From contig CAYGJY010000002.1 of NCBI GenBank assembly GCA_964350645.1, positions 246,431 through 310,430 of the forward strand: a DNA stretch of 64,000 nt. Reading direction: 5' to 3'. The notes beneath the pieces were generated by a model. It had not been told where the DNA came from and did not search any database. It saw nothing but the letters and a program-made list of their open reading frames with translations. Source of the DNA: an uncultured Candidatus Saccharibacteria bacterium (lineage in GTDB: Bacteria; Patescibacteriota; Minisyncoccia; Phycocordibacterales; UBA918). Numbering within the stretch: the first letter of the stretch is position 1; every line of letters begins with the position of its first letter. This document shows positions 2,031 through 32,420 of this stretch, in pieces. A program made the translations under genes and the position numbers.

Positions 2031-4418
2031 TTGAAAATGAAAATGTTTGAATTCAAAGGTATAAATTTTGAGAGCATAAAACTGAGTGTTGGTTCACTTG
2101 TTGGTGTTGGTAAAATTTTTCATAAAGAAGAGCACCAAGACAACCGGAAAATTCAACTAGAGCAAACGTCGCAAACCTACATAGCGAACCAGCTCAACCT
2201 CAGTCTTGAAGGCTTGACCCCAGAACAACAAACTGACCTCATTCAGAGTGCGTTGGGGAAAAAAGAACAGAATGACTCGGAGGTACTCGAGCCTCCAAAA
2301 GCTCAGACAACAGAGCCACTACCTCAACCAACTGAAGAAAGTGGTACTGAAAAATTCCTCAAGCAACGTTTGGAAGACTACAAAAGCAACCCTGAGTTGT
2401 TGCTTGATAGAGGTGCTTTATTGTCTGTATACACCGATCGAGAGAAGATTGGCTTTTCTGAAGAAGAGCTAGTTTTTCTTGTACAGTCTTCTATAAAAAA
2501 CGAGTTTCCCATTTGGTATTGGTCTTTCTACCAACGAGAGAACTTCGAAAGCGTCTCACCTATGTTCAAAAATGCGTATGCACATGAATCACTGAAAATA
2601 CGGTGTGGCGTGATCGAAGCTCTCACAAGTTTTTCTGACACGAGTGATGACATCATTGAATTGTGTGAGTCCGAAAGGAACCCTAAGGTTCTTGGATATG
2701 CAGCATCTGCATTTGCACGCAAAAAAGACTATCCAAGGCTTCAAAGAGTAGTGGCCAATGCACTTACTCGACGTATTGTGCCTGAGTTGACCGAGGAAGG
2801 GCGAGGACTGTTGAATAAGATCAGTATTGACCTTGGTGCGGCGGAACGACGTTTTTTGTGTGAAAAAATTGAGAATGGGTGGACTGAAGAAAAGATTTTG
2901 TCTTTAGGAATTCTTAGTACTTCTGCTGAAGAATCTGATTTGGAAACCCTTGAAAAATTTGTTGGAACATCTCTATTTATACGAGCTGAAGAGCTGGTGC
3001 TTTTGTGCATTGCAAAAATTGGTAAAACAACTAAGGCAGACAAAATTGAAAAAGAACTGCTTGAAACCAACAGGATTGAAACTTTCTATGCAGCACTTGA
3101 TGTTTTGGTGAAAATAAACTACGAGCCACTCTTTGATCAACTGCTTGAATGGCTTGGAAAAGCAGAGCGAATATCAGGAAGATTTTGGGGTGAGGTTGAT
3201 GACAGTAAAATCAAAGATAACATCCAAGACTCCTTGCTAGAGCTATTGAATGAGAAGAACTACAATAAATTTGTCGAGTATATCTTGGACAATTACGATG
3301 CTGACTATCGTGGAAACATCTGGAGCTGGCGTCATTTTTGGGTACTCAGAATGGCTTGTAAAAAGTCGGGGCTTCGCGACTTTATAAAGAAAGAAAAACG
3401 TCTCGTCGATTTTGAAAAATGGGCAGATGTAAAAGCTGAGCTGATTCAGGTGGAGGAAGTAGCGAAAGAAAGCCCCGATCAACTATTTGAAGCCGCAAAA
3501 GTCCAGACTTATAACAATAAACTTTTTATACTACGCAAGCTTTACACCCTGATCACTCCCGAGAAAGCCTTTGAAATGGCAGATCAATTTATTGAGGATC
3601 TACGCATAGACTTGAAACAACGCTTGAAAAAAGTGTCTGAGGAGGATCATCCAGAGGATGTAAAAAAGATCGCTGCAAATGATCTTGATAAATTCTTAGG
3701 TGAAAACCATTTCTTTTACCGCTTACAAAGGAAAAAGAAGAGGGGTAGACGTGCTGAAGATGAGGGCGAGAAAGATGTAGCCTTTGAGCAGCTCAGTGAA
3801 GACATTGATAAGTTCAATTACATTGAGAAAGAGTATCTCACGCACATTTTCAAAAGTGATGATAAGGTTATTCAGAAGAAACTCCTGGTTAGTATCGGGA
3901 GGCCTCATGAGTGCATATATGAGTCTCTGCAAACCTCAACGGGTGAGGTTGGTGCTCTTGAGCGCGCGCTAAATCAAGTCATCGTGTCTGACCCAAACAA
4001 GCTTCTCAAACTGAAGGCGATTGACGCGGCTTTGAGAATAGGAGTGTGTGAGAGAGCAGAATTACATTTGAAGACTCTTGAAATACTTGTGAACTCTAGG
4101 ACAATAGCTAAGGCACCACGAGGTGAAGATTATGATACTTGGTTTACGGGCGAGTTGACTTACGGCTGGGCAGTCAACACATTGAGTAAATTTGGTGATG
4201 TTATTGATTTCCCACTGATAAAAGAAGCTGAGAATCGTGAGAAAGTTATTTCACGCAGTTACCGACACTATGGTAGTTATCAAGATATTAGTGTTTTTGG
4301 TGAATTACTAGATTTGACTGAAATACTCGAAGACCCTGAGGATAAAGGAAACACTTTCTCTACTCTTGAGGATCTTGATTATAGATGGTCGAAAAAGATT
4401 TTGGGCATAGAAGATTGA
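2031..4418 (+). CDS. Large hypothetical protein (795 aa) with HEAT/PBS-lyase-like repeats; AT-rich.
   Basis: Long intact ORF; repeated 'E.NPKV...AA.AL' helical-repeat segments; noticeably lower GC than neighbouring core genes. Confidence 0.5.
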   Translation: MKMKMFEFKGINFESIKLSVGSLVGVGKIFHKEEHQDNRKIQLEQTSQTYIANQLNLSLEGLTPEQQTDLIQSALGKKEQNDSEVLEPPKAQTTEPLPQPTEESGTEKFLKQRLEDYKSNPELLLDRGALLSVYTDREKIGFSEEELVFLVQSSIKNEFPIWYWSFYQRENFESVSPMFKNAYAHESLKIRCGVIEALTSFSDTSDDIIELCESERNPKVLGYAASAFARKKDYPRLQRVVANALTRRIVPELTEEGRGLLNKISIDLGAAERRFLCEKIENGWTEEKILSLGILSTSAEESDLETLEKFVGTSLFIRAEELVLLCIAKIGKTTKADKIEKELLETNRIETFYAALDVLVKINYEPLFDQLLEWLGKAERISGRFWGEVDDSKIKDNIQDSLLELLNEKNYNKFVEYILDNYDADYRGNIWSWRHFWVLRMACKKSGLRDFIKKEKRLVDFEKWADVKAELIQVEEVAKESPDQLFEAAKVQTYNNKLFILRKLYTLITPEKAFEMADQFIEDLRIDLKQRLKKVSEEDHPEDVKKIAANDLDKFLGENHFFYRLQRKKKRGRRAEDEGEKDVAFEQLSEDIDKFNYIEKEYLTHIFKSDDKVIQKKLLVSIGRPHECIYESLQTSTGEVGALERALNQVIVSDPNKLLKLKAIDAALRIGVCERAELHLKTLEILVNSRTIAKAPRGEDYDTWFTGELTYGWAVNTLSKFGDVIDFPLIKEAENREKVISRSYRHYGSYQDISVFGELLDLTEILEDPEDKGNTFSTLEDLDYRWSKKILGIED

Positions 4419-5252: not shown

Positions 5253-5486
5253 TTACCGGCGCTTTACCTTACGCGCTCTTTTGAGCTTTTTCTTCAGCTT
5301 CTTCCGCGCTCCCTCGTCGCCTTTGAGGCCCTCCGCTTCCGTAAGCAGTTCGAGAACCTGGCCCTCCAGATCTTGAAGGTCGCACGCCAGGGCATAGAGG
5401 CCCAGGCCTACCTTGTCAGGAATAGCGTTGATGCGATTCCAGAATTCCTCTGACTTCTCGCCAGAGTAAACCGTCCGGGCTTTCAT
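5253..5486 (-). CDS. Small basic hypothetical protein (77 aa).
   Basis: ORF trimmed to ATG preceded by AGGAGAA SD (revcomp of 5487-5500); lysine/arginine-rich C-terminus; hairpin terminator downstream (5195-5235). Confidence 0.4.
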   Translation of the reverse strand: MKARTVYSGEKSEEFWNRINAIPDKVGLGLYALACDLQDLEGQVLELLTEAEGLKGDEGARKKLKKKLKRARKVKRR

Positions 5487-9973: not shown

Positions 9974-10027
9974 ACAAGAAAACCGCCTCAAAGGCGGTTT
10001 TCTATTCTTCTAGATATTTCCATGTCT

Positions 10028-10419
10028 GGTGGAGATGGGGGTATTGAAACCCCGTCCGAATTAATCTGCCGTTGTGCGTCTACAGTGTGTAGTCGTTTCT
10101 TTGATTTAAAGTAGTGGCCTAAAGAAAAGACAAAACAATCACTACTCGAGTTGCTGCATCTTGGGCACTTGGCACAACCGACCAAGTTTCCACAGTCTGA
10201 TGTTTATTCCACCCGTACTACCTTACCAGACATGGGGTAGACGAGCGTCGTACCGGCGAGCGAGTGGTTACGCTACAGCGGGTGCGAATCCGAACGCGTT
10301 AGCGTACGGACTTGGTACAGATTTGTTTGCATCTATACGTAGCCGCCTTTTAACGAATGGCGGCCAATTTCGACACTGCACACAATGACAACAACTAACC
10401 GTCGATGCCTAGCATCCCC
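10028..10419 (-). ncRNA. ssrA: tmRNA (ssrA), ~392 nt.
   Basis: Minus-strand 5' GGGGAUGCUAGGCAUCGAC and 3' ...GGACGGGGUUUCAAUACCCCCAUCUCCACCA (tRNA-like end, acceptor pairs with 5' end); internal tag ORF GCA AAC AAA ... GCU GUA GCG UAA = ANKSVPSPYANAFGFAPAVA*; smpB adjacent. Confidence 0.75.
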
Positions 10420-21298: not shown

Positions 21299-21947
21299 GG
21301 AGCAGGTGCTGGTTGTAGCCAGCGGTCACTAAGTATTCCCAAGCTGACGTCACTTCGATTGGAATGTCTTGCTCAATTTGAAAACCTCGTTTTGGGTATT
21401 CTTTGATCCGTTGCAGGTCACCGGCCATTATATTAATAACTGCTTCTCGCCTGATAGGTCCGTCGCAGTATTCATCGAAGTTCAACGGTGGTGAGGTGAG
21501 AGTTTGATTAAGTTCCGGCCAGACAATTTTTCCGGTCGCAAAGGTACGGCGTTCCATGTAGGGCTTTTGTACGATGATGGCAGAATCTATTTTGAAGCTA
21601 GAAGTCTCGGCAATTTTCTTTGAGAAACTAAAGTTTTCGGCAGTGTTATTAGCTTTCTTTTCAAGTACTATTTTTTCTTTTGGAATGCCGGCAGCAATCA
21701 TGATTTCAGCAAATACTTCCGCTTCAGTTTGTCCAGCGTGGGTATCTCGTAGCAAAGCACTATGGTGGTTGGTGCCATCTCCAGAAACAATGACAATTGG
21801 CGCTAGCTTTTTAGGCCAGAGCGTCGCCGCGTACGCGGCGACGCGGGTATCGTTAGAACAAAAAACAAAAAATGCATCTGCTGGCTTCAGCGAATGATGT
21901 AGCTGATGATAGTCCCAAATCAGTTTGATTGCTTCAGCTTCGGTCAT
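21291..21947 (-). CDS. YdcF/ElyC (DUF218) family protein.
   Basis: 'FVFCSNDTRVAAYAATLW...IVIVSGDG' DUF218 core; ORF-track start (22106) overlaps the tRNA, trimmed to ATG at 21947. Confidence 0.6.
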   Translation of the reverse strand: MTEAEAIKLIWDYHQLHHSLKPADAFFVFCSNDTRVAAYAATLWPKKLAPIVIVSGDGTNHHSALLRDTHAGQTEAEVFAEIMIAAGIPKEKIVLEKKANNTAENFSFSKKIAETSSFKIDSAIIVQKPYMERRTFATGKIVWPELNQTLTSPPLNFDEYCDGPIRREAVINIMAGDLQRIKEYPKRGFQIEQDIPIEVTSAWEYLVTAGYNQHLLHD

Positions 21948-22048
21948 GGTTACCTCTATGTTACTTCGAGTACTATTCAGCGATTTTACGTGACGCTTGC
22001 ATAGATTGAGTATAGCGTAAATTCGCGGTACAGTAATACCCAAGCCAA

Positions 22049-22121
22049 CCGCCTGTAGCTCAGTTGGTAGAGCGCGAAGCTTATACCTTCGTGGTCCCAG
22101 GTTCAAGTCCTGGCGGGCGGA
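22049..22121 (+). tRNA. tRNA with anticodon UAU (Ile, AUA-decoding type).
   Basis: Cloverleaf: acceptor CCGCCTG/CGGGCGG (T6:G wobble), D-arm TAGCTCAGTTGGTAGAGC, anticodon stem CGAAG/CTTCG with loop CTTATAC, T-arm CCAGGTTCAAGTCCTGG; Ile-like backbone. Confidence 0.7.
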
Positions 22122-22135
22122 CTAGTTTCAGTAAT

Positions 22136-23341
22136 ATGTTTATCCCAACTAAAACACAAGCAGAAGCAATTCGACAGGAGTTTGGCACACCGGTTTTTGT
22201 GTCTGATGCAGCCACGATTAGAACTAATGCTCAGAACCTGTTAGAAGCATTTGCAGATCTCAATCTAAAAATCTTCTACGCGGTTAAGGCGAACTATAAT
22301 CCGACGGTTGTGAAAACCGTCAAGGAAGCTGGGGTCTATGGTATCGACGCGGTATCAGTAAATGAGATCAAACACGTCATGAAGCTTGGTTACACGGCAG
22401 AACAAATCATCTTCACACCGAGTAATCCATCGACAGAAGAAATGAAGATGGTGGGGGAGTTGGGTGTGTTGCAAAATTTAGGTTCAATTTCTGAGCTCAA
22501 GCGTTTTGGTGAATTATTTCCGGGCGGCAAGGTGTCAGTGCGGATTTGTCCTAAAGTTGGGGCAGGGGAATTTAAGCAGGTAACGACAGGTGGTGAGTCG
22601 TCGAAGTTTGGGGTGTCGTTTGCTGATCTTGATAAAGTGGCCAAGGTTTGTAATGAAGCGAATGTCACAGTGGTAGGAATCCATAGTCATATTGGTTCTG
22701 GCTTTTATGATGCAGTGGCATTTAAATATTCAGTTGAAGCGGTACTCGATGTGGCACGCCGGTTTGGTTCGGTACAACACGTCGACTTCGGCGGCGGTTT
22801 TGGTGTGCAGTATCATATAGACAAACCAGAAATTAACTTGGCAGAATTTGCTGCTGCAATTATGGCACCGGTACAAGCGTATAAGGAAGATACAGGGATT
22901 GATCTTGAGCTTCGGATTGAACCAGGGAAATATTTGGTTTCAAACGCCGTGGCCCTCTTAGCAGAAGTGACAACGGTAAAGCAAAAAGGAGATATTACGT
23001 TTGTTGGACTGAATACAGGTTTTAATCATTTGATTCGACCAGCAATGTATAACGCGTATCACCATATTGTGAATGTAAGCGATCCTGAGGGTACTAGGAA
23101 ATGGGTTGAGGTAGTTGGAAATGTTTGCGAGACGTGCGATGTCTTTAACGGTGGAATTGAAGTGGCAGACCCGAAAGAAGGTGATGTGTTGGCAATCTTA
23201 GTCGCTGGTGGGTATGGGGCAGCAATGAGTAGCAACTATAATATGCAGTCACTGGCCGCTGAGGTGATGATTGATGGTGATGATATGAAACTCACCCGTC
23301 GCCGACAGACATTGGAAGATATCACCGCGCAGTTTATATAA
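22136..23341 (+). CDS. lysA: PLP-dependent decarboxylase of the Orn/DAP/Arg family (likely diaminopimelate decarboxylase).
   Basis: 'FYAVKANYNPTVV' PLP-lysine motif, 'GGGFGV' and C-terminal beta-domain; start trimmed to 22136 (ORF-track start overlaps tRNA). Terminator 23361-23397. Confidence 0.75.
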   Translation: MFIPTKTQAEAIRQEFGTPVFVSDAATIRTNAQNLLEAFADLNLKIFYAVKANYNPTVVKTVKEAGVYGIDAVSVNEIKHVMKLGYTAEQIIFTPSNPSTEEMKMVGELGVLQNLGSISELKRFGELFPGGKVSVRICPKVGAGEFKQVTTGGESSKFGVSFADLDKVAKVCNEANVTVVGIHSHIGSGFYDAVAFKYSVEAVLDVARRFGSVQHVDFGGGFGVQYHIDKPEINLAEFAAAIMAPVQAYKEDTGIDLELRIEPGKYLVSNAVALLAEVTTVKQKGDITFVGLNTGFNHLIRPAMYNAYHHIVNVSDPEGTRKWVEVVGNVCETCDVFNGGIEVADPKEGDVLAILVAGGYGAAMSSNYNMQSLAAEVMIDGDDMKLTRRRQTLEDITAQFI

Positions 23342-23416
23342 AGCAATGTAGTGAAGAGAAAACAGCCGGCTGTCCCGTAGGGACACCCGGCTGTTTTCTA
23401 CGCTATACTTGTATTC

Positions 23417-23923
23417 ATGCTCTCAGCTTTTGTTATTTCTCAGATTCTTGTTGGGTTTGCCTTTGTCGCGGACATTGCGTCATTCCAGTTTAAAGCTCGA
23501 AAGACTACGTTATTGCTATTTGCTTTCTCTGCCGGGGTGCTGTCAGCACATTTCTTTTTACTTGGAGCAACAACTGCCGGCTTTGTTGTGGCCGTTAGTG
23601 CCAGTCGGTTTGTTGTTTCTGCGTTTACCACCGATAAGCGATTAAAGTATTTTTTCCTCGTACTTATTCTGGCCTTAGGTATTTGGACATACGATGGCTA
23701 TGAGGATATTCTCATTACAACCGCAATGCTGTTGTCTACAATCGCTGCCTTCCATGCCAACGAAAGGCGTTTGCGAGAAATTATGATGATCACAACCACT
23801 CTAGTGATTACCCATAATTTTATTATCTTTACTCCCGGAGGAATTTTAGTTGAATCCTTCTTCCTCTCTTCTAACCTTCTCAGCTACTGGCGGTTTTATA
23901 TTCGTAAGCAGCCCGCTCAGTAA
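23417..23923 (+). CDS. YgjV-like inner-membrane protein, tandem paralog 1.
   Basis: Paralogous to 290-805 and 23931-24440 (shared motifs incl. 'LSYWRFYIRK'). Confidence 0.5.
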   Translation: MLSAFVISQILVGFAFVADIASFQFKARKTTLLLFAFSAGVLSAHFFLLGATTAGFVVAVSASRFVVSAFTTDKRLKYFFLVLILALGIWTYDGYEDILITTAMLLSTIAAFHANERRLREIMMITTTLVITHNFIIFTPGGILVESFFLSSNLLSYWRFYIRKQPAQ

Positions 23924-23930
23924 TAGCTAT

Positions 23931-24440
23931 ATGTTTTCTGCCTTTGTTATTTCGCAGCTGGTTGTCGGGATTGCGTTTGTTCTTGGGTTAAGCTCGTTTC
24001 AATTTAAAAACCGTACACATACTCTTTTGCTACTTGGTGTGGCCCAGCTATTAAATGGTCTCCACTTTTTTATTTTGGGAGCTACTACGGCTGGTTTCAT
24101 GCTGTTGTTGTCAGCAGTTCGGCTCGTTACCGGAACATATACAAAAAAACGCTGGGTGATGTTTGGTTTTATTTTTTTAGCAGTTGTAATCGGTATTCTC
24201 ACGTTTGAAAAAATATACGACGTACTGCCTGTAATTGGAGTTATCCTGGGAACCGTTGGCACATTTTGTCGAGATGACAGAAAGATGCGCTCGTTTATGT
24301 TGGGTGGTTCGACTAGTGGTATTGTATTTAACGCACTGATCTTTTCTCCAGTTGGGTTTGTGTTGGAATTATTCTACCTACTTTCAAACCTAACCAGCTA
24401 CTGGCGGTTTTATATTCGAAAAGGTGAGGTAACTAAGTGA
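23931..24440 (+). CDS. YgjV-like inner-membrane protein, tandem paralog 2.
   Basis: Start trimmed to ATG 23931 ('MFSAFVISQLVVG'), ends 'TSYWRFYIRK'. Confidence 0.5.
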   Translation: MFSAFVISQLVVGIAFVLGLSSFQFKNRTHTLLLLGVAQLLNGLHFFILGATTAGFMLLLSAVRLVTGTYTKKRWVMFGFIFLAVVIGILTFEKIYDVLPVIGVILGTVGTFCRDDRKMRSFMLGGSTSGIVFNALIFSPVGFVLELFYLLSNLTSYWRFYIRKGEVTK

Positions 24441-24442
24441 GA

Positions 24443-26611
24443 TTACTCCATATGCAACTGCTCACCAATTTGAGAGACTTTGTGGGCGATGAGGGGGAAG
24501 TCTTGGTTGAGTTTGGGGTGGTTGGTAACTAAGTTCTGTGCTTCGGTGCGGGCGGCTTCAACGAGCTTCAGGTTTTTGATCGCTTCCATGCCGAGGTCAG
24601 ACAGGCCGGACTGCTTGGCGCCATAGAGCTCACCAGAGCCACGAAACTGCAGGTCATGCTCGGCCAGTTCAAAGCCATTCTTGGCAGTGCTGAGCGCTTT
24701 CAGGCGCTCTTTGGTTTTGTCACTCTTGCTTTCCGTCACGGCAAAACAGTAGGGTTGGTGGGTTCCACGAATCACTCGACCACGCAGCTGGTGGAGTTGC
24801 GAGAGACCAAAGCGTTCGGCGCCTTCGATGATGATATTGGTGGCGTTGGGGACGTTTACGCCGACTTCCACTACTGAAGTGGCGACCAAGATATCAATCT
24901 CGTGGTTAGCAAACTGCAACATCACCGCATCTTTCTCGGCTGGTTTCATTTTGCCGTGCAAGACACCAATCTCGTAATCTTGGAAGACATCTTTTTTGAG
25001 ACGTACCGCTTCAGCTTTCACACTCTTGAGCTGAAGGGCAGTGGCTTTATCTGGGTCAGGCTCGTCGATGCGCGGACAAATGACATAGGCTTGTCGGCCG
25101 GCCGCTAGTTCGGAGCGGACATGCTCGTACATCTTTTTTTGCTGACTCGGGCCGACTATTTCAGTCTTCACTGGTTTGCGGCCGGCCGGCATCTCATCGA
25201 GCAGGGTGATATCAAGGTCGCCATAGATGGTGAGCGCTAAGGTGCGAGGAATTGGGGTGGCGGTCATTGAAAGTAAGTGTGGCATTCGAGCATCTTTCTT
25301 CGCTAGCTGCTTGCGTTGGTTGGTACCAAAGCGGTGTTGTTCGTCGATAATGACATAGGCAAGATGTTTAAATTCGACCGACTTATAAATAAGCGCGTGA
25401 GTCCCAATCAAAATCGGGATCTCGCCATTTTTCACCCACTTGAGTAGCTGGGCGCGGGAGATGTTGGTCGGCTTGGTGGGATCGACTTTGCTGGGGAACT
25501 TCTGGCAGCCCGAGCCAGTGATCAGACCAATTGAGATTGGGAGGTGATGAAAGTACTCGATAAAACTCTCGAAGTGTTGTTTGGCGAGGATCTCAGTTGG
25601 CGCCATGTAGGCGACCTGAAGATTACCCCAATCCTTGGCGTTGTCTGGCCGCGAAGTAGCGACAGCATAGGCAGTGGTAGCAGCGACAGCGGTTTTACCT
25701 GAGCCTACGTCACCTTCAAGCAAGCGACTCATGGCGTGATTACCATTGAAGTTTTTGAGGATCTCACCAATTGATTTGTCTTGACTTTTGGTGAGTGTGA
25801 AAGGGAAGCGTTCGGTAAAGGCTTCAACGTGCTCCGACGTGGTCTTAAAGCTGTAGGTACTGGCGGCATTGGCCAGCGCCCGGTTCTGGGCGTTTTGGAC
25901 TTGGATATAAAATACTTCCTCAAAGGCAAAGCGTTTGCGAGCGCTCTCGGCGTGCTCGGCTTTCTTCGGGGAGTGGATCCAGACGAGTGCAGTTTTTAAT
26001 ACGGGCAGTTTGTAGCGTTTCAAAATCTCTGCGGGAATTGGGTCATGAATTGTATCTAATATGCCTTTCTCAAAACACTTTAGTGCTGTGTGGTAAAACC
26101 ACTTACTCGTCACACCCTTAGTTTCACGATAGACCGGATAGATGGTCTCGTCGATCTCGGCGTCCGTGCCTTTAAAGATGGAGTCATGTCGATCAATCGG
26201 CAAAGCGTCGAGCTTCTCGACTTCCGGGTTGGCAATATACAGCTTGCCTTCTGAGCCAGTGACTTTCCCAGCTACTTTCACGTACATCCCGTCGCTATAC
26301 ATCTTGGCCAAGTAGGGTTGGTTAAACCACATGATCTTAATCTTAGCCGAACCATCTTCAATGTAGCCTTCAGCGATTGGGCGCTTGGTGGTCCAGGCTT
26401 TCCGGCTCTTCAAACCCGAGAGCTGACCATAGACGATCGCTTCTTGGTCTTTCTGTAAGCCGCCAACTGACTGCACATCAGAAATATCTTCGTACCGAGC
26501 GGGGAGGTGGTACAGTAAATCTTCCACCGTGGCGATCCGTAAACGCTTCAGTGCTTTCTGGTGCGGCTGGTCGATCCGAAAGTGATCGGTGAGGAGGTCG
26601 TGTGCTTGCAT
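24443..26611 (-). CDS. recG: ATP-dependent DNA helicase RecG.
   Basis: Wedge domain, Walker A 'GDVGSGKT', DEQH box 'IIDEQHRFG', helicase C-terminal motifs; start trimmed to M at 26611. Confidence 0.9.
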   Translation of the reverse strand: MQAHDLLTDHFRIDQPHQKALKRLRIATVEDLLYHLPARYEDISDVQSVGGLQKDQEAIVYGQLSGLKSRKAWTTKRPIAEGYIEDGSAKIKIMWFNQPYLAKMYSDGMYVKVAGKVTGSEGKLYIANPEVEKLDALPIDRHDSIFKGTDAEIDETIYPVYRETKGVTSKWFYHTALKCFEKGILDTIHDPIPAEILKRYKLPVLKTALVWIHSPKKAEHAESARKRFAFEEVFYIQVQNAQNRALANAASTYSFKTTSEHVEAFTERFPFTLTKSQDKSIGEILKNFNGNHAMSRLLEGDVGSGKTAVAATTAYAVATSRPDNAKDWGNLQVAYMAPTEILAKQHFESFIEYFHHLPISIGLITGSGCQKFPSKVDPTKPTNISRAQLLKWVKNGEIPILIGTHALIYKSVEFKHLAYVIIDEQHRFGTNQRKQLAKKDARMPHLLSMTATPIPRTLALTIYGDLDITLLDEMPAGRKPVKTEIVGPSQQKKMYEHVRSELAAGRQAYVICPRIDEPDPDKATALQLKSVKAEAVRLKKDVFQDYEIGVLHGKMKPAEKDAVMLQFANHEIDILVATSVVEVGVNVPNATNIIIEGAERFGLSQLHQLRGRVIRGTHQPYCFAVTESKSDKTKERLKALSTAKNGFELAEHDLQFRGSGELYGAKQSGLSDLGMEAIKNLKLVEAARTEAQNLVTNHPKLNQDFPLIAHKVSQIGEQLHME

Positions 26612-26756
26612 AGCTGCTACATGATAGCAGGAAGTAGCTGAAGAAACAGTAGGGGTGCTCGCTGTCGCTCGCACCCCATCCACCCAAAATTTGACAACCT
26701 AAAGAAACTATTACTATTCAATAAAATCTGCTTGCCAAGGCAAGAGAGAGAGTACT

Positions 26757-27080
26757 TTGGGTGGTACCGGAGGCACCAACGCCGAAGGAAACGCAATTTC
26801 CGGCCGAGGCGCCGGGAGACAAAGGAGAAGACGATGAAGACGCTTATGATGGGCCCCCAGACCGCCGCCGTTCACACCCCGGCCGACATGGGTGGCCGCG
26901 GCACGGGCTTCCCGAAGGTGATGGCGCCGGAAACCGACGGCGCCCGCGATCCCGACCGGCTTGCAGGCGCCGTCGACAAGACCGACGACACCAACGCGTC
27001 GGCGGTCTGACATCAAGTTCGCCGCCGGCTTCGGCTGGCATCGTTGCAACCAGGGGGGGGTGGCGCAGCCACCCCCAACC
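26757..27080. other. ~68% GC island in a ~45% GC context; contains a 58-aa high-GC3 ORF and GC hairpins.
   Basis: Abrupt compositional shift; ORFs open in nearly all six frames (a hallmark of high-GC DNA); hairpin gggggtggc-gca-gccaccccc at 27056-27076. Confidence 0.7.
26834..27010 (+). CDS. Small high-GC ORF (58 aa: MKTLMMGPQTAAVHTPADMGGRGTGFPKVMAPETDGARDPDRLAGAVDKTDDTNASAV).
   Basis: AGGAGA SD 5 nt upstream of ATG; ~90% G/C at codon third positions, coherent with a coding sequence from a high-GC organism; followed by GC hairpins. Confidence 0.3.
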   Translation: MKTLMMGPQTAAVHTPADMGGRGTGFPKVMAPETDGARDPDRLAGAVDKTDDTNASAV

Positions 27081-27297
27081 AACCTTGAATAGTTTGCACC
27101 TACCCATTTTGGGAAGAAAGGTGACCAGACTATCAAGGTTGCTTTTCGTTTTACTGACCAGGTATTTTTGTCCAACTAGCAAGGCATGTCCCGCTCTTAC
27201 TTTTGTGCGACTGTGTTTAACAGTACAAAAGTAAGGGGAGGCATTGCTTTTCGTTTAGAGAAGAGAATTTTTATAGTAGATAGTAGAGGGGATGATG

Positions 27298-27339
27298 GGC
27301 AGCTGGCCGGCAAAAGCAATCGCTTTTGCCGGCCAGCTG
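27298..27339. promoter_or_regulatory. Perfect 19-bp inverted repeat (gcagctggccggcaaaagc-aatc-gcttttgccggccagctgc) upstream of the malic enzyme gene.
   Basis: Read directly; 19/19 complementary arms with a 4-nt spacer. Confidence 0.6.
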
Positions 27340-27366
27340 CGTAGTGTGTATACTAGTCACTTACCT

Positions 27367-28515
27367 ATGCCAAAGAAAAAACCAGACTACAATCAGCTTG
27401 CGCTGAAGCTGCACAAAAAACTAAAAGGCAAAGTGGCGCTGCAGGTAAAGGGGTCACTAAAAACCACGACCGACTGGAGCATCATGTACACCCCTGGAGT
27501 AGCGGCAGTATCTTCATATTTGGCCAAGAAGCCACAGGACGCTCGACAGTACACCAGCAAAGGCAATACAGTCGCCGTCGTCTCTGACGGCTCAGCGGTC
27601 TTAGGACTCGGCAATATCGGCCCACTCGGTGCCTTGCCAGTGATGGAAGGGAAAGCGGCAATTTTTAAGTCGATGGCTGACGTCGACGCCTGGCCGCTCG
27701 TTTTAGGCACGCAAGACACCGAAGAGATCATTAAGACCGTGAAAGCGATCGCTCCCGGTTTTGGTGGGATCAACCTTGAGGATATCAGCGCGCCGCGCTG
27801 CTTCGAGATTGAAGAACGACTTAAAAAAGATTTAGCTATTCCGGTATTTCATGATGACCAGCACGGCACGGCGATTGTAGTCCTAGCTGGTTTGATCAAT
27901 GCGGCTAAGGTAGTAAAGAAAAAGCTAGAGACGTTGCGAGTCGTCGTGGTAGGCGCTGGCGCTGCTGGACGAGCGATTACGCTGATCCTCTTGCAAGCCG
28001 GTATTACCGATGTGGTCGTGACTGATAGCACGGGCGTGCTTCATACTGGTCGTGCGAATACTTCAGGTTATAAAAAAGATTTAGCTAAAGCGACCAACCC
28101 GCGTGGTGTGACCGGGGAAGTGCTCGACGCTGTGACTGGTGCTGATGTGATTGTTGGGGTATCAGGCCCAGGTACAATCTCACGGCATCATGTTGAGCAA
28201 ATGAATAAGGACGCAATCGTGTTTGCACTGGCAAATCCAATCCCTGAGATTAAACCAGAAGATGCGAAGGTCGCGGGCGCCGCGGTCATTGCGACTGGCC
28301 GGAGTGATTATCCGAATCAGGTCAACAACTCACTCGTGTTCCCGGGAATTTTCCGCGGTGCTCTCGATAAAGGCGTGCGGGACATTACCGATGATATGAA
28401 ATTGGCTGCTGCCAAGAAACTAGCTGCGCTGGTAAAAAATCCAACCGCCGGTGAGGTGATCCCGCACATCAGTACAAAAAACTTGGTACAAACGATTGCG
28501 AGTGCAATTAGATAA
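27367..28515 (+). CDS. NAD(P)-dependent malic enzyme (short form).
   Basis: Malic-enzyme N-terminal domain and Rossmann 'VVVGAGAAGRAI'; start trimmed to 'MPKKKPDYNQLALK' at 27367. Confidence 0.85.
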   Translation: MPKKKPDYNQLALKLHKKLKGKVALQVKGSLKTTTDWSIMYTPGVAAVSSYLAKKPQDARQYTSKGNTVAVVSDGSAVLGLGNIGPLGALPVMEGKAAIFKSMADVDAWPLVLGTQDTEEIIKTVKAIAPGFGGINLEDISAPRCFEIEERLKKDLAIPVFHDDQHGTAIVVLAGLINAAKVVKKKLETLRVVVVGAGAAGRAITLILLQAGITDVVVTDSTGVLHTGRANTSGYKKDLAKATNPRGVTGEVLDAVTGADVIVGVSGPGTISRHHVEQMNKDAIVFALANPIPEIKPEDAKVAGAAVIATGRSDYPNQVNNSLVFPGIFRGALDKGVRDITDDMKLAAAKKLAALVKNPTAGEVIPHISTKNLVQTIASAIR

Positions 28516-28529
28516 TACTATTAAATATT

Positions 28530-29012
28530 ATGGAAGAAATTAACATTCCAGAAAAAACTAGTCCTATTGCACTGGATCTATATCTTGAAACTATCTCAAA
28601 GTTTGATGAAATTAACGGGGAACTCCCACAGACTGAGCTGCACGGATTTTACTTGTGGCACGCTGTCACCGACCCAGATTTTAAGGTGGAGGGTTTTTCT
28701 ATGCTCGACACCTATCGCCATAATGTACTCGAGGGCGAGATGTCAGAGGAACGGTTTAGAGAGTGGTGTGATGACTTTAATTTGCCGTACCCTTTGTTGC
28801 CAAAGGTTAATGTCTTAACTGGAGAAGGAAAAGAATACAGCACGTGGTATCAATCTGAAACAGAGAAGCGTATTGATGCGTATGAAGCGTGGGCTGAGGA
28901 ACAAGGGATTAATACTCGCCCGGGAACAGTAATGATTTTTATAGATGCAGAAGGTAATTCGTATCGTGTAAAAACTGATGCAGACAGTCGCGGTGAGATT
29001 ATTGTAGCGTAA
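28530..29012 (+). CDS. Hypothetical protein (160 aa).
   Basis: Intact ORF; convergent with next gene; two hairpins 29022-29060 and 29092-29113 between them. Confidence 0.45.
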   Translation: MEEINIPEKTSPIALDLYLETISKFDEINGELPQTELHGFYLWHAVTDPDFKVEGFSMLDTYRHNVLEGEMSEERFREWCDDFNLPYPLLPKVNVLTGEGKEYSTWYQSETEKRIDAYEAWAEEQGINTRPGTVMIFIDAEGNSYRVKTDADSRGEIIVA

Positions 29013-29133
29013 ACACCATAACGAAACGCCCGACAATCAAGTCCGAAAGTCGGATGATTCGTCGGGCGCGGTGCCCTGGTTTTGATTTTGAGTGCGAGCG
29101 GTCGATGCCGCTCGCCGTCTCTTGCGCGACTGA

Positions 29134-29466
29134 TTATTCAGAAGCTTGCTCGGCAGCTGCTTTTCTTGCTGCCTTCTCATGTTGGGAGGCCACTTCCTCT
29201 GCATCTTTGTGAAGGCAGTGTTGATGCAGACCCGCCATAGTCATTGGAAGCAGGTCCTCGCCAGGTCCCGACAAATCTACCTTCAACTCATCAGTCAGTG
29301 CGAGAATAAGTTCCTGCGCATCGACAGGGGTGAAACCCATGCCTTCCAAAGTAGTGTCAGGACAAGAAGAAATCAGAGCTGGTTGGAAGCGCTTGAGGCC
29401 CTCAAATGCTGCACACGCTTTTGAAAACTGCATTTGAAATTGGGCGATACCCTTAGCAACGCTCAT
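29134..29466 (-). CDS. Hypothetical protein (110 aa).
   Basis: ORF trimmed to 'MSVAKG' with GGAGG SD 8 nt upstream (revcomp of 29467-29483). Confidence 0.45.
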   Translation of the reverse strand: MSVAKGIAQFQMQFSKACAAFEGLKRFQPALISSCPDTTLEGMGFTPVDAQELILALTDELKVDLSGPGEDLLPMTMAGLHQHCLHKDAEEVASQHEKAARKAAAEQASE

Positions 29467-29587
29467 TTTATTATCCTCCGTTTGGGTTGAAGCATATAAT
29501 TCCATATATACATGAGTTTAGCAATGCATTTGAACTAGAAGAGTCACCCGGTATATGCTATTCTACCAGCCACAATCAAATACATAT

Positions 29588-29674
29588 GGAGGGTTGGCTG
29601 AGTGGTCGAAAGCGCTTCACTGCTAACGAAGTAAGGGGTTAAACCCTTCAAGGGTTCGAATCCCTTACCCTCCG
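29588..29674 (+). tRNA. tRNA-Ser (anticodon GCU).
   Basis: Acceptor GGAGGGT/ACCCTCC, long variable arm GTAAGGGGTTAAACCCTTCAAG, T-arm GGGTTCGAATCCC, anticodon loop CTGCTAA; discriminator G. Confidence 0.8.
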
Positions 29675-29707
29675 CATCCTCGAGCTAGCTCGAGACATTA
29701 AATTAAT

Positions 29708-29971
29708 ATGAAAACATATATTATTTCATATGACCTAAGAAAGGTGAGAGATTACGAAGGCCTTTATGCTGCCATAAAATCTTATGGCACGTGGGCTCAC
29801 GTGCTGGAGTCTCTTTGGGCTGTTCATACTTCTAGTTCAGCAAAAGAAATTCGTGAAAATCTACTTTCTTACATGGATTCTGATGACGGTATCTTTATAG
29901 TAAAGTCTGGAGGCGAGGCTGCTTGGAGGAAGGTAATATCAAGGAATGCTTGGTTGAAGAAATATCTATAG
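29708..29971 (+). CDS. Small soluble protein (87 aa) with Cas2/VapD-like predicted beta-alpha-beta topology.
   Basis: 'KTYIISYDL' strand, then '...AAIKSYGTWAHVLESLWAV...' and C-terminal 'DSDDGIFIVK', reminiscent of the Cas2/VapD ferredoxin-like fold; similarity is pattern-level only. Confidence 0.4.
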   Translation: MKTYIISYDLRKVRDYEGLYAAIKSYGTWAHVLESLWAVHTSSSAKEIRENLLSYMDSDDGIFIVKSGGEAAWRKVISRNAWLKKYL

Positions 29972-31892: not shown

Positions 31893-32420
31893 ATGAAAAA
31901 AATTCTTTTGATCTCAGGTTCGCTACGCGCAAAATCATTTAACACAGCATTACTTCGTAGTTTTGATGCTAAGTTGGCTGGCCAGGCAGAGGTGGAGTGG
32001 GCGGATATTCAATTGCCACTTTTTAACGAAGAGCTTGAAGCGGATTTCCCAAAATCAGCTGAGGTGTTACGACAACAAATTTTAGCTGCGGATACAATTG
32101 TGATTGCAACTCCAGAATATAATCGAGGTATGACTGGTGTTCTCAAAAACGCTATCGACTGGGCGTCTCGCCCGTACGGTCAAAATGCCTGGAAGGGTAA
32201 AGAGGTGCTCGTCGTGGCAGCGGCGTACGGCATGCCGGGCGGGGCGCTCGCCCTCTATCAGGTGAAGCAAGTATTGCTCCATCTTGGTGCTCATGTGCTT
32301 GGTTCGCCAGAATTTATGGTGGCGCAAGCTCAAAATAAGTTTGATGAGACTGGGGCAATTACTGATGAGTCAACTCGAGATCACGTCACGTCGGCAGTCG
32401 CTGTCCTGCTCCAGGAATAG
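31893..32420 (+). CDS. NADPH-dependent FMN reductase family protein.
   Basis: 'KILLISGSLRAKSFNTAL' flavodoxin-like N-terminus typical of NADPH-dependent FMN reductases. Confidence 0.8.
   Translation: MKKILLISGSLRAKSFNTALLRSFDAKLAGQAEVEWADIQLPLFNEELEADFPKSAEVLRQQILAADTIVIATPEYNRGMTGVLKNAIDWASRPYGQNAWKGKEVLVVAAAYGMPGGALALYQVKQVLLHLGAHVLGSPEFMVAQAQNKFDETGAITDESTRDHVTSAVAVLLQE

Follow-up and report, generated by a model that had tools for sequence, protein, structure and literature searches.

A GC-rich island with an orphan small gene in the strain-variable interval between recG and tRNA-Ser

Introduction

How did a short stretch of strongly GC-rich DNA come to lie between two genes of an AT-richer bacterial genome, and is it a gene, an RNA, an inert relic, or an error of assembly? 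The question is raised by positions 26757-27080 of a 64-kb stretch of DNA, which we analyzed as a whole and refer to as the window. Stable RNA genes in AT-richer genomes classically show up as GC-rich intergenic islands, a signal that GC-based ncRNA screens make use of. Lambdoid phages carry morons, which are autonomous promoter-ORF-terminator units that lie between genes and typically have a base composition unlike that of their neighbors. A first-pass annotation of this DNA had read the segment as a compositional island that holds a small ORF with the codon usage of a high-GC source such as Actinobacteria. Here, we weigh these readings against the composition, coding signal, folding, genomic context, and relatives of the island.

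Results and Discussion

No other part of the window deviates in composition as strongly as the island. Its GC content is 68.2% (0.682), compared with 45.0% (0.450) for the whole 64 kb, in keeping with the abrupt step from ~45% to ~68% that had been annotated. Windows of 100 nt within the island reach a GC content of 0.76, and the best 300-nt window (0.687) lies 5 sd above the mean (0.45, sd 0.046); the rest of the 64 kb stays well below it. Read on the plus strand, the island (26757-27080) comprises a 5' leader, a small ORF, and two G+C hairpins. The earlier statement that all six reading frames are open across it did not hold: just two of the six are fully open, and the other four contain one to three stops each. 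Furthermore, because the island has 68% GC, the length of an ORF carries no weight by itself.

The island sits in the 755-bp spacer between two divergently transcribed genes. On the left is recG (24443-26611, minus strand), whose start we take as the ATG at 26611; the alignments of its relatives break off between 26589 and 26633, and several do so at 26611 itself. On the right is a malic enzyme gene (27367-28515, plus strand), whose start we take as 27367 rather than 27292 or 27295, since the context ATGCC.GCACC.AAGAAAAAAGA is conserved in two relatives, L162 and L085. Protein domains agree with the previously proposed location between these two genes: recG homologues carry the Pfam domains RecG_wedge, DEAD, and Helicase_C, and the right-hand gene encodes PF00390 and PF03949. 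The spacer to the left of the island (26612-26756) is AT-richer and strain-specific, and holds a hairpin (26652-26677), a TTGACA hexamer (26691-26696), and the palindrome CTTGCCAAGGCAAG (26731-26744). Past the malic enzyme gene, a tRNA-Ser(GCT) gene (29588-29675, plus strand) forms the far boundary of a strain-variable interval: the tRNA gene is conserved in relatives, unlike the DNA that separates it from recG.

The genome is plausibly Saccharibacteria- or Patescibacteria-like, a possibility that had been raised earlier. The closest relative of the malic enzyme comes from a Candidatus Saccharimonas MAG, and one relative of recG is labeled 'Patescibacteria group bacterium'. There is also a type IV pilus gene cluster. 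Saccharibacteria have recently become amenable to genetic work through natural competence. A search of contigs with the malic enzyme gene returned distant relatives only (≤57% identity), without synteny. Two of these malic enzyme relatives (L027 and L052) have GC peaks upstream, of which one proved to be a collagen-like repeat gene and the other an unrelated ORF. The window itself has just two other local GC peaks, both short; one is at 5303-5408 and the other lies inside an ORF at 31893-32420, the translation of which looks FMN reductase-like by eye. Capture related to a CRISPR system was also considered and rejected, as a weak Cas2-like ORF lies nearby with no repeat array.

The island encodes a complete small gene. 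A 58-aa ORF runs from ATG to TGA on the plus strand (26834-27010), and a Shine-Dalgarno-like AGGAGA (AAGGAGAA), recognized by reading the sequence, stands 5 nt 5' of the ATG (26823-26828), where the GC content dips locally in a purine-rich stretch; both had been described earlier, and both are confirmed at these positions. The encoded peptide (MKTLMMGPQTAAVHTPADMGGRGTGFPKVMAPETDGARDPDRLAGAVDKTDDTNASAV) is rich in Ala, Thr, Gly, and Asp, is acidic (pI 4.9), contains Met at five of its 58 residues, and showed no fold with AlphaFold2 (pLDDT 63, pTM 0.14). On a Logan contig, the same ORF is annotated as a gene. Its GC contents by codon position are 0.68 (GC1), 0.56 (GC2), and 0.86 (GC3), and the order GC3 > GC1 > GC2 is typical of high-GC genes. 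The high GC3 and the foreign codon signature reported by the first-pass annotation therefore stand, although the third-position value is 0.86 and not the "about 0.90" given there.

Codon statistics confine the coding signal to this ORF. Its 3-base periodicity (max-min 0.305) was not equaled by any of 5000 dinucleotide-preserving shuffles. We scored the sequence with a high-GC codon table built from 61 long ORFs of high-GC actinobacterial loci. The ORF gains +25 bits in its own frame; the two shifted frames score -51 and -68 bits, and the frames of the opposite strand -4 to -78 bits. Shuffled versions score -19.3 +/- 6.6 and peak at 8.0, and none of 3000 matches the value of the ORF. The 75 nt from the left island edge to the ATG score negative in all three plus-strand frames. 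Since the leader scores negative and the frame of the ORF positive, the coding signal runs exactly from the Shine-Dalgarno motif and ATG to the stop codon. The locus thus has the features by which small genes are recognized, namely a ribosome-binding site at its start codon, a frame free of stops, and frame-specific codon statistics, and the ORF is a complete small gene rather than a fragment of a longer one. An alternative genetic code that would read through the TGA was rejected, because recG and the malic enzyme gene translate cleanly with code 11.

The codon usage of the ORF is foreign to the window. Among 34 long native ORFs, GC3 is 0.42 +/- 0.07 and nowhere above 0.60, which places the small ORF 6.4 sd out. 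No 59-codon stretch of these 34 native genes exceeds a GC3 of 0.73 (0 of 1108).

Could the island instead be a structured non-coding RNA, with the ORF incidental to it? It forms a GC peak between genes, contains several stem-loops, and has strong hairpins on its flanks. On the minus strand, the 351 nt from 26745 to 27095 fold somewhat better than shuffled sequences (z -2.55), and a minus-strand terminator-like site (26744-26731) lies at the left island edge. Against this, the plus strand of the same 351 nt has a z-score of only -1.65, and the 5' leader (~75 nt) is unstructured (z -0.53). Rfam 15 at gathering thresholds finds a tmRNA and six tRNAs only in the whole window, and no family in 26600-27400; at E ≤ 10, this region yields only spurious miRNA-type hairpins, the best of which scores 26.5 bits against a gathering score of 69. 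These searches, which the first-pass annotation had called for, agree with its failure to find an RNase P- or SRP-type RNA. The island has no homologue in the relatives or in the collections on which base-pair changes could be counted, and hence no covariation to support a fold. At 68-76% GC, it also lies far above the stable RNAs of its own genome (0.50 for the tmRNA match and 0.60-0.64 for two aligned tRNA matches). Furthermore, an RNA gene would not be expected to show 3-base periodicity this strong or codon usage specific to one frame. Thus, the island carries a high-GC-type protein-coding signature and no recognizable structured RNA, and we regard the RNA reading as distinctly improbable.

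The junctions of the island are reproduced in other assemblies. A short, compositionally foreign segment found in one population only is what might be expected if a piece of a co-occurring high-GC organism had been spliced into the contig, and the supporting contigs all come from one study (runs ERR35349xx). However, an internal insert of 320 bp requires two chimeric joins. Both joins recur in a 3,132-bp Logan contig of run ERR3534985 (L001), which is 100% identical to window positions 26486-29617, and the right join recurs in a contig of run ERR3534981 (L087), which is 100% identical to positions 26986-29622. The joins are therefore seen in independent assemblies, where those of a chimera should be irreproducible, and a matching high-GC source sequence is absent from all collections searched. 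An assembly chimera is very unlikely, and it is the reading of the locus to which we attach the lowest probability.

A transposon or MITE was likewise rejected. The island has inverted repeats at chance level only, no target-site duplication, and no second copy in the window. A 9-nt inverted repeat does flank it (26713-26721/27085-27093), and we estimate that about 1.5 such pairs would occur by chance per 900 nt. Neither an integrase nor direct repeats nor a duplicated target is tied to the island.

The island is missing from every related locus examined. RecG has many relatives at 78-99% amino-acid identity, and we compared ten of their loci. The closest are L082 and L083, in which RecG is 99% identical and the DNA about 93% identical; their runs belong to the same accession series as the contigs that support the window and presumably to the same study. 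Both loci are collinear with window positions 21315-26599 and then diverge completely, without the island. From recG to the same tRNA-Ser, their cargo is a ketoacyl synthase gene and a 166-aa ORF; in the window, the island, the malic enzyme gene, and two orphan ORFs take this place. In L162, recG and the malic enzyme gene are about 100 bp apart, which is in effect an "empty site". In L085, this gap holds a GtrA-like gene. L160 has a gene-free spacer of 1,065 bp, unrelated in sequence, with hairpins and mini-ORFs and no Rfam match. A split, higher-GC ilvC (GC3 0.78) adjoins recG in L084, and a serine recombinase gene and a Viral_Rep gene adjoin the tRNA-Ser gene in L158. In the window, the first ORF past tRNA-Ser(GCT) belongs to the phage family phrog_1090 (E 1.5e-24).

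The different cargo in each relative, together with these mobile and phage genes, marks the stretch from recG to tRNA-Ser as a hotspot of gene turnover that takes up foreign and mobile DNA. The island is one strain-specific item within this hotspot. It shows two marks of horizontal acquisition: its composition and codon usage deviate from those of the genome, and it is absent at the orthologous site, of which an empty form is known. A remnant of a neighboring gene was rejected as its source, since a tblastx comparison of the spacer with the loci of the relatives gave nothing significant.

A gene native to the lineage but aberrant in composition, for example one that encodes a small, rapidly evolving protein and owes its high GC to intrinsic causes, would fit with the native-looking AT-rich signals that surround the island (the TTGACA and the terminator-like sites described below). 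Such a gene is hard to reconcile with a GC3 this far above that of native genes, with absence from relatives as close as 93% DNA identity, and with the lack of a paralogue in the window. We therefore give very little weight to a native origin.

We consider it about an even chance that the island is a laterally acquired, moron-like small-gene cassette from a high-GC organism, lodged in a hypervariable interval. On this account, a short piece of high-GC DNA with one complete small gene would have been taken up laterally and inserted here. Plus-strand transcription would set out from the AT-rich spacer on the left, and translation of the ORF would yield a peptide that is small, acidic, and probably disordered. 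Two sites that combine a hairpin with a U tract would end the transcript, so that the promoter of the malic enzyme gene, a candidate for which is TTGCCG-17-TATACT at 27326-27354, would be insulated from it.

The sequence 3' of the ORF is rich in stem-loops. Two GC hairpins, including a 9-bp stem, had been annotated here, and both are present. The first, found by folding, is a GCCGGC-UUCG-GCUGGC tetraloop hairpin that lies 14 nt past the stop codon (27024-27039, plus strand). The second, found by repeat search and folding, is a 9-bp G/C hairpin, GGGGGUGGC-GCA-GCCACCCCC, which has no U tract (27056-27076, plus strand; arms 27056-27064/27068-27076). The fold of the region that contains them (27011-27082) has a free energy of -35.1 kcal/mol (z -2.47).

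Two terminator-like sites follow these hairpins. The first (27080-27152, plus strand) begins exactly at the right island edge and consists of a long hairpin (27080-27141) and then UUGCUUUUCGUUUU (-28.2 kcal/mol, z -4.70). The second (27181-27256, plus strand), about 100 nt further on, consists of a long hairpin (27181-27250) and then UUGCUUUUCGUUU (-31.7 kcal/mol, z -4.40). The tails of the two sites are identical (UUGCUUUUCGUUU). Both have the makeup of predicted intrinsic terminators, that is, a stable stem-loop with a U-rich tract next to it, and both are terminator-like on the plus strand only. They escaped a simple scanner because the predicted folds, which branch or bulge, are not plain stems with loops of 3-8 nt. 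Both sites stand in the AT-richer flank and could have another role or be relics. On the 5' side of the ORF, we found no convincing sigma-70-type promoter: the TTGACA is perfect, the -10 hexamers 16-18 nt from it match at no more than three of six positions, and a promoter scan returned none.

The main rival to an expressed cassette is an inert relic. In this account, a foreign high-GC fragment arrived by illegitimate recombination or DNA uptake and is unexpressed or functionless, recent junk in the hotspot that has so far been neither deleted nor ameliorated to the composition of the host. The island is found in this strain only, its peptide is unique among about 15 billion predicted proteins, and its ORF has no recognizable promoter. 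The composition of the peptide, with its five Met residues, and its lack of a fold or family would also suit a non-functional ORF. Furthermore, the decaying, split ilvC of L084 occupies the same slot and indicates that foreign DNA lands and rots there. What speaks for the cassette over the relic is that the ORF is intact, that it has a canonical Shine-Dalgarno motif and a coding signal that coincides with the span from ATG to stop, and that two plus-strand terminator-like sites lie 3' of it. Patescibacterial genomes are also compact, and a dead spacer of 755 bp should be short-lived in them. We regard an inert relic as possible, if on balance rather unlikely.

The donor of the island was sought among proteins and DNA. 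When 5.8 billion protein clusters were searched by word index, the 92-aa open frame of the peptide matched only itself, on one Logan contig, and an exhaustive HMMER search of 1.84 billion representatives found no homologue of the peptide but itself. The other five frames, searched as a concatenated query, gave no match at E ≤ 1, and scans of JGI metagenomes and IMG/VR with back-translated patterns gave no relative of the peptide. It has no family match in Pfam, NCBIfam, PHROGs, PADLOC, or PDB. As DNA, the island had no blastn match among plasmids and nothing real among phages (one 36-nt match, E 0.1), and its exact 21-23-mers are absent from IMG/VR; isolate genomes were covered through the protein databases. 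A 19-mer of the second hairpin does occur in 70 JGI metagenome contigs, whose likeness to the island is confined to the hairpin except for a few alignments of 43-47 nt at 77-84%. Because it is shared by 70 unrelated metagenome contigs, this hairpin is generic and names no lineage.

The proposal that the segment came from Actinobacteria, as the usual hosts of the clade, thus found no backing: neither the peptide, nor the other five frames, nor the DNA has a relative in any collection searched, and no donor lineage emerges. By the same searches, the small ORF has an identical copy and no further homologue in which purifying selection could be seen. The actinobacterial codon table is no proof of a donor either, since 58 codons are too few to separate Actinobacteria from other high-GC lineages. 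With no donor and no homologue, the argument for a foreign origin is one of composition and phyletic absence only. An actinobacterial donor is a guess and is unproven.

A more specific version of the acquisition can be imagined, in which a naturally DNA-scavenging episymbiont took the gene from a high-GC partner, perhaps its actinobacterial host or a phage of that host, and now expresses it from its own signals as a small acidic effector. Such an effector might possibly act as a mimic or an anti-defense-type peptide in the interplay between host and symbiont or phage and symbiont. The intact, codon-foreign ORF with its Shine-Dalgarno motif, the native-looking terminators, and the hotspot of mobile DNA are all compatible with a host-derived effector. 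This version has positive support neither for the host origin nor for the function, and we grant it only a slim chance.

We conclude that the island is laterally acquired DNA with an orphan small ORF, which is a known kind of sequence, and that it is no new kind of element. Its closest counterparts differ from it in instructive ways. Like a phage moron, the island is built around one small ORF that has a ribosome-binding site to itself, with stem-loops and terminator-like sites 3' of it, and lies between two unrelated genes; its GC content deviates sharply, and one strain has it while close relatives do not. Unlike a moron, it lies outside any recognizable prophage, with the phrog_1090 ORF past tRNA-Ser and the recombinase genes of a relative as the hints of mobile DNA, and it has neither a convincing promoter nor a homologue in phage and viral collections. 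The island also resembles the genomic islets or ORFans that lie in tRNA-linked hypervariable regions, in that its composition and codons deviate, its occurrence among relatives is patchy, and its interval is bounded by a tRNA gene and holds different cargo in each relative. It differs from them in its very small size (320 bp with one 58-aa ORF) and in that no integrase or donor was found.

With GC-rich ncRNA genes, the island shares an intergenic GC peak and stable hairpins, but it has no Rfam match, its fold z-scores are weak, it shows strong codon periodicity and frame-specific codon usage, and it lacks conservation. Terminators of the stem-loop type that lack a U tract have been described for high-GC Actinobacteria, and the two G+C stem-loops directly 3' of the stop codon likewise have none. 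The comparison is limited by the second hairpin, whose 19-mer is generic, and the two stem-loops are at most putative terminators.

If the island was indeed captured, it is a clean and very small case of the recent uptake of foreign DNA by a reduced Patescibacteria genome, documented at both junctions, at the empty site of a relative, and across the hypervariable slot from recG to tRNA-Ser. It would then be a useful marker of gene flux at the strain level and, given the high-GC genomes that co-occur in the same samples, a candidate for tracing links to a donor or host. A single orphan ORF of 58 aa, taken alone, changes nothing that is known and opens no long-standing question.

The right-hand part of the spacer holds one further structure. 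Just 5' of the promoter-like site of the malic enzyme gene lies a perfect 19-bp palindromic hairpin (27299-27340), which folds with -43.2 kcal/mol (z -8.67).

Gene turnover between recG and tRNA-Ser(GCT)

The interval between the start of recG and tRNA-Ser(GCT) (window 26600-29587) is a hotspot of gene turnover at strain level. We find that its content is rebuilt in all relatives compared (loci L082, L083, L084, L085, L086, L158, L159, L160 and L162), while both flanking anchors are kept. The cargo is a ketoacyl synthase, in some cases accompanied by FabA; a GtrA-like gene together with the malic-enzyme gene; the malic-enzyme gene only; a split ilvC; or orphan ORFs. The split ilvC (ketol-acid reductoisomerase) of L084 directly adjoins recG (1782-2794 of that locus) as ORFs of 228 and 109 aa, with a GC3 of 0.78-0.79 against 48% GC for the contig. 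It is a further higher-GC import, apparently in decay, in this relative's equivalent slot.

The recG/malic-enzyme spacer of another relative, L160, is gene-free over 1,065 bp (1591-2657), with neither an Rfam match nor similarity to the GC-rich island of the window. It contains two modules, each beginning with TTTTTTGTTTCTGGTA, and several hairpin-plus-T-run sites. Its mini-ORFs, MTQPPY* and MPLHPAGVPP*, have a Shine-Dalgarno sequence upstream and a Pro-Pro pair at or beside their end. The malic-enzyme gene of L027, a distant Saccharibacteria MAG, also has a GC peak upstream of it. This peak is unrelated to the island and corresponds to a minus-strand ORF of 160 aa (3421-3903 of that locus), which reads, judged by eye alone, as a collagen-like (Gly-Pro-X) repeat.

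Probable traces of mobile elements lie at the tRNA-Ser boundary. Directly after the tRNA, an 87-aa ORF (29708-29968) strongly matches the phage family phrog_1090 (E = 1.5e-24) and is probably the remnant of a tRNA-integrated mobile element. The same ORF has weak Cas2-like matches (Pfam, 5e-4; PADLOC, 4.8e-5), and the 64-kb window contains no CRISPR array. In L158, the orthologous tRNA-Ser has as neighbours (1-1571 of that locus) a Viral_Rep gene and a large serine recombinase with Resolvase, Recombinase and Zn_ribbon_recom domains, which points to an integrative element using that tRNA.

Hairpins and the malic-enzyme start codon

Tandem terminator-like sites separate the island from the malic-enzyme gene. 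The 64 kb contain exactly two copies of the 13-mer TTGCTTTTCGTTT (27139-27151 and 27244-27256), and each copy forms the tail of a long plus-strand hairpin. Further downstream, directly 5' of a promoter-like site of the malic-enzyme gene, lies a perfect 19-bp palindromic hairpin (27299-27340; -43 kcal/mol, z = -8.7). An 18-bp hairpin of unlike sequence occupies the equivalent position in L160 (1673-1714); the element could have a conserved role as insulator, terminator or operator. The ORF listing and the gene call on a Logan contig start the malic-enzyme gene at 27292/27295, a choice that makes the 19-bp hairpin coding. We place the true start at 27367 because the start context there, ATGCC.GCACC.AAGAAAAAAGA, is conserved in L162 and L085.

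RNA genes elsewhere in the window

At 22049-22122, ARAGORN predicts a tRNA-Ile whose anticodon is TAT; tRNA-Ile with a UAU anticodon is uncommon in bacteria, where AUA is mostly decoded by a lysidine-modified CAU tRNA. A tmRNA gene lies on the minus strand (10027-10419; Rfam RF00023, 110.6 bits), and its central pseudoknot region carries a large insertion relative to the RF00023 model.
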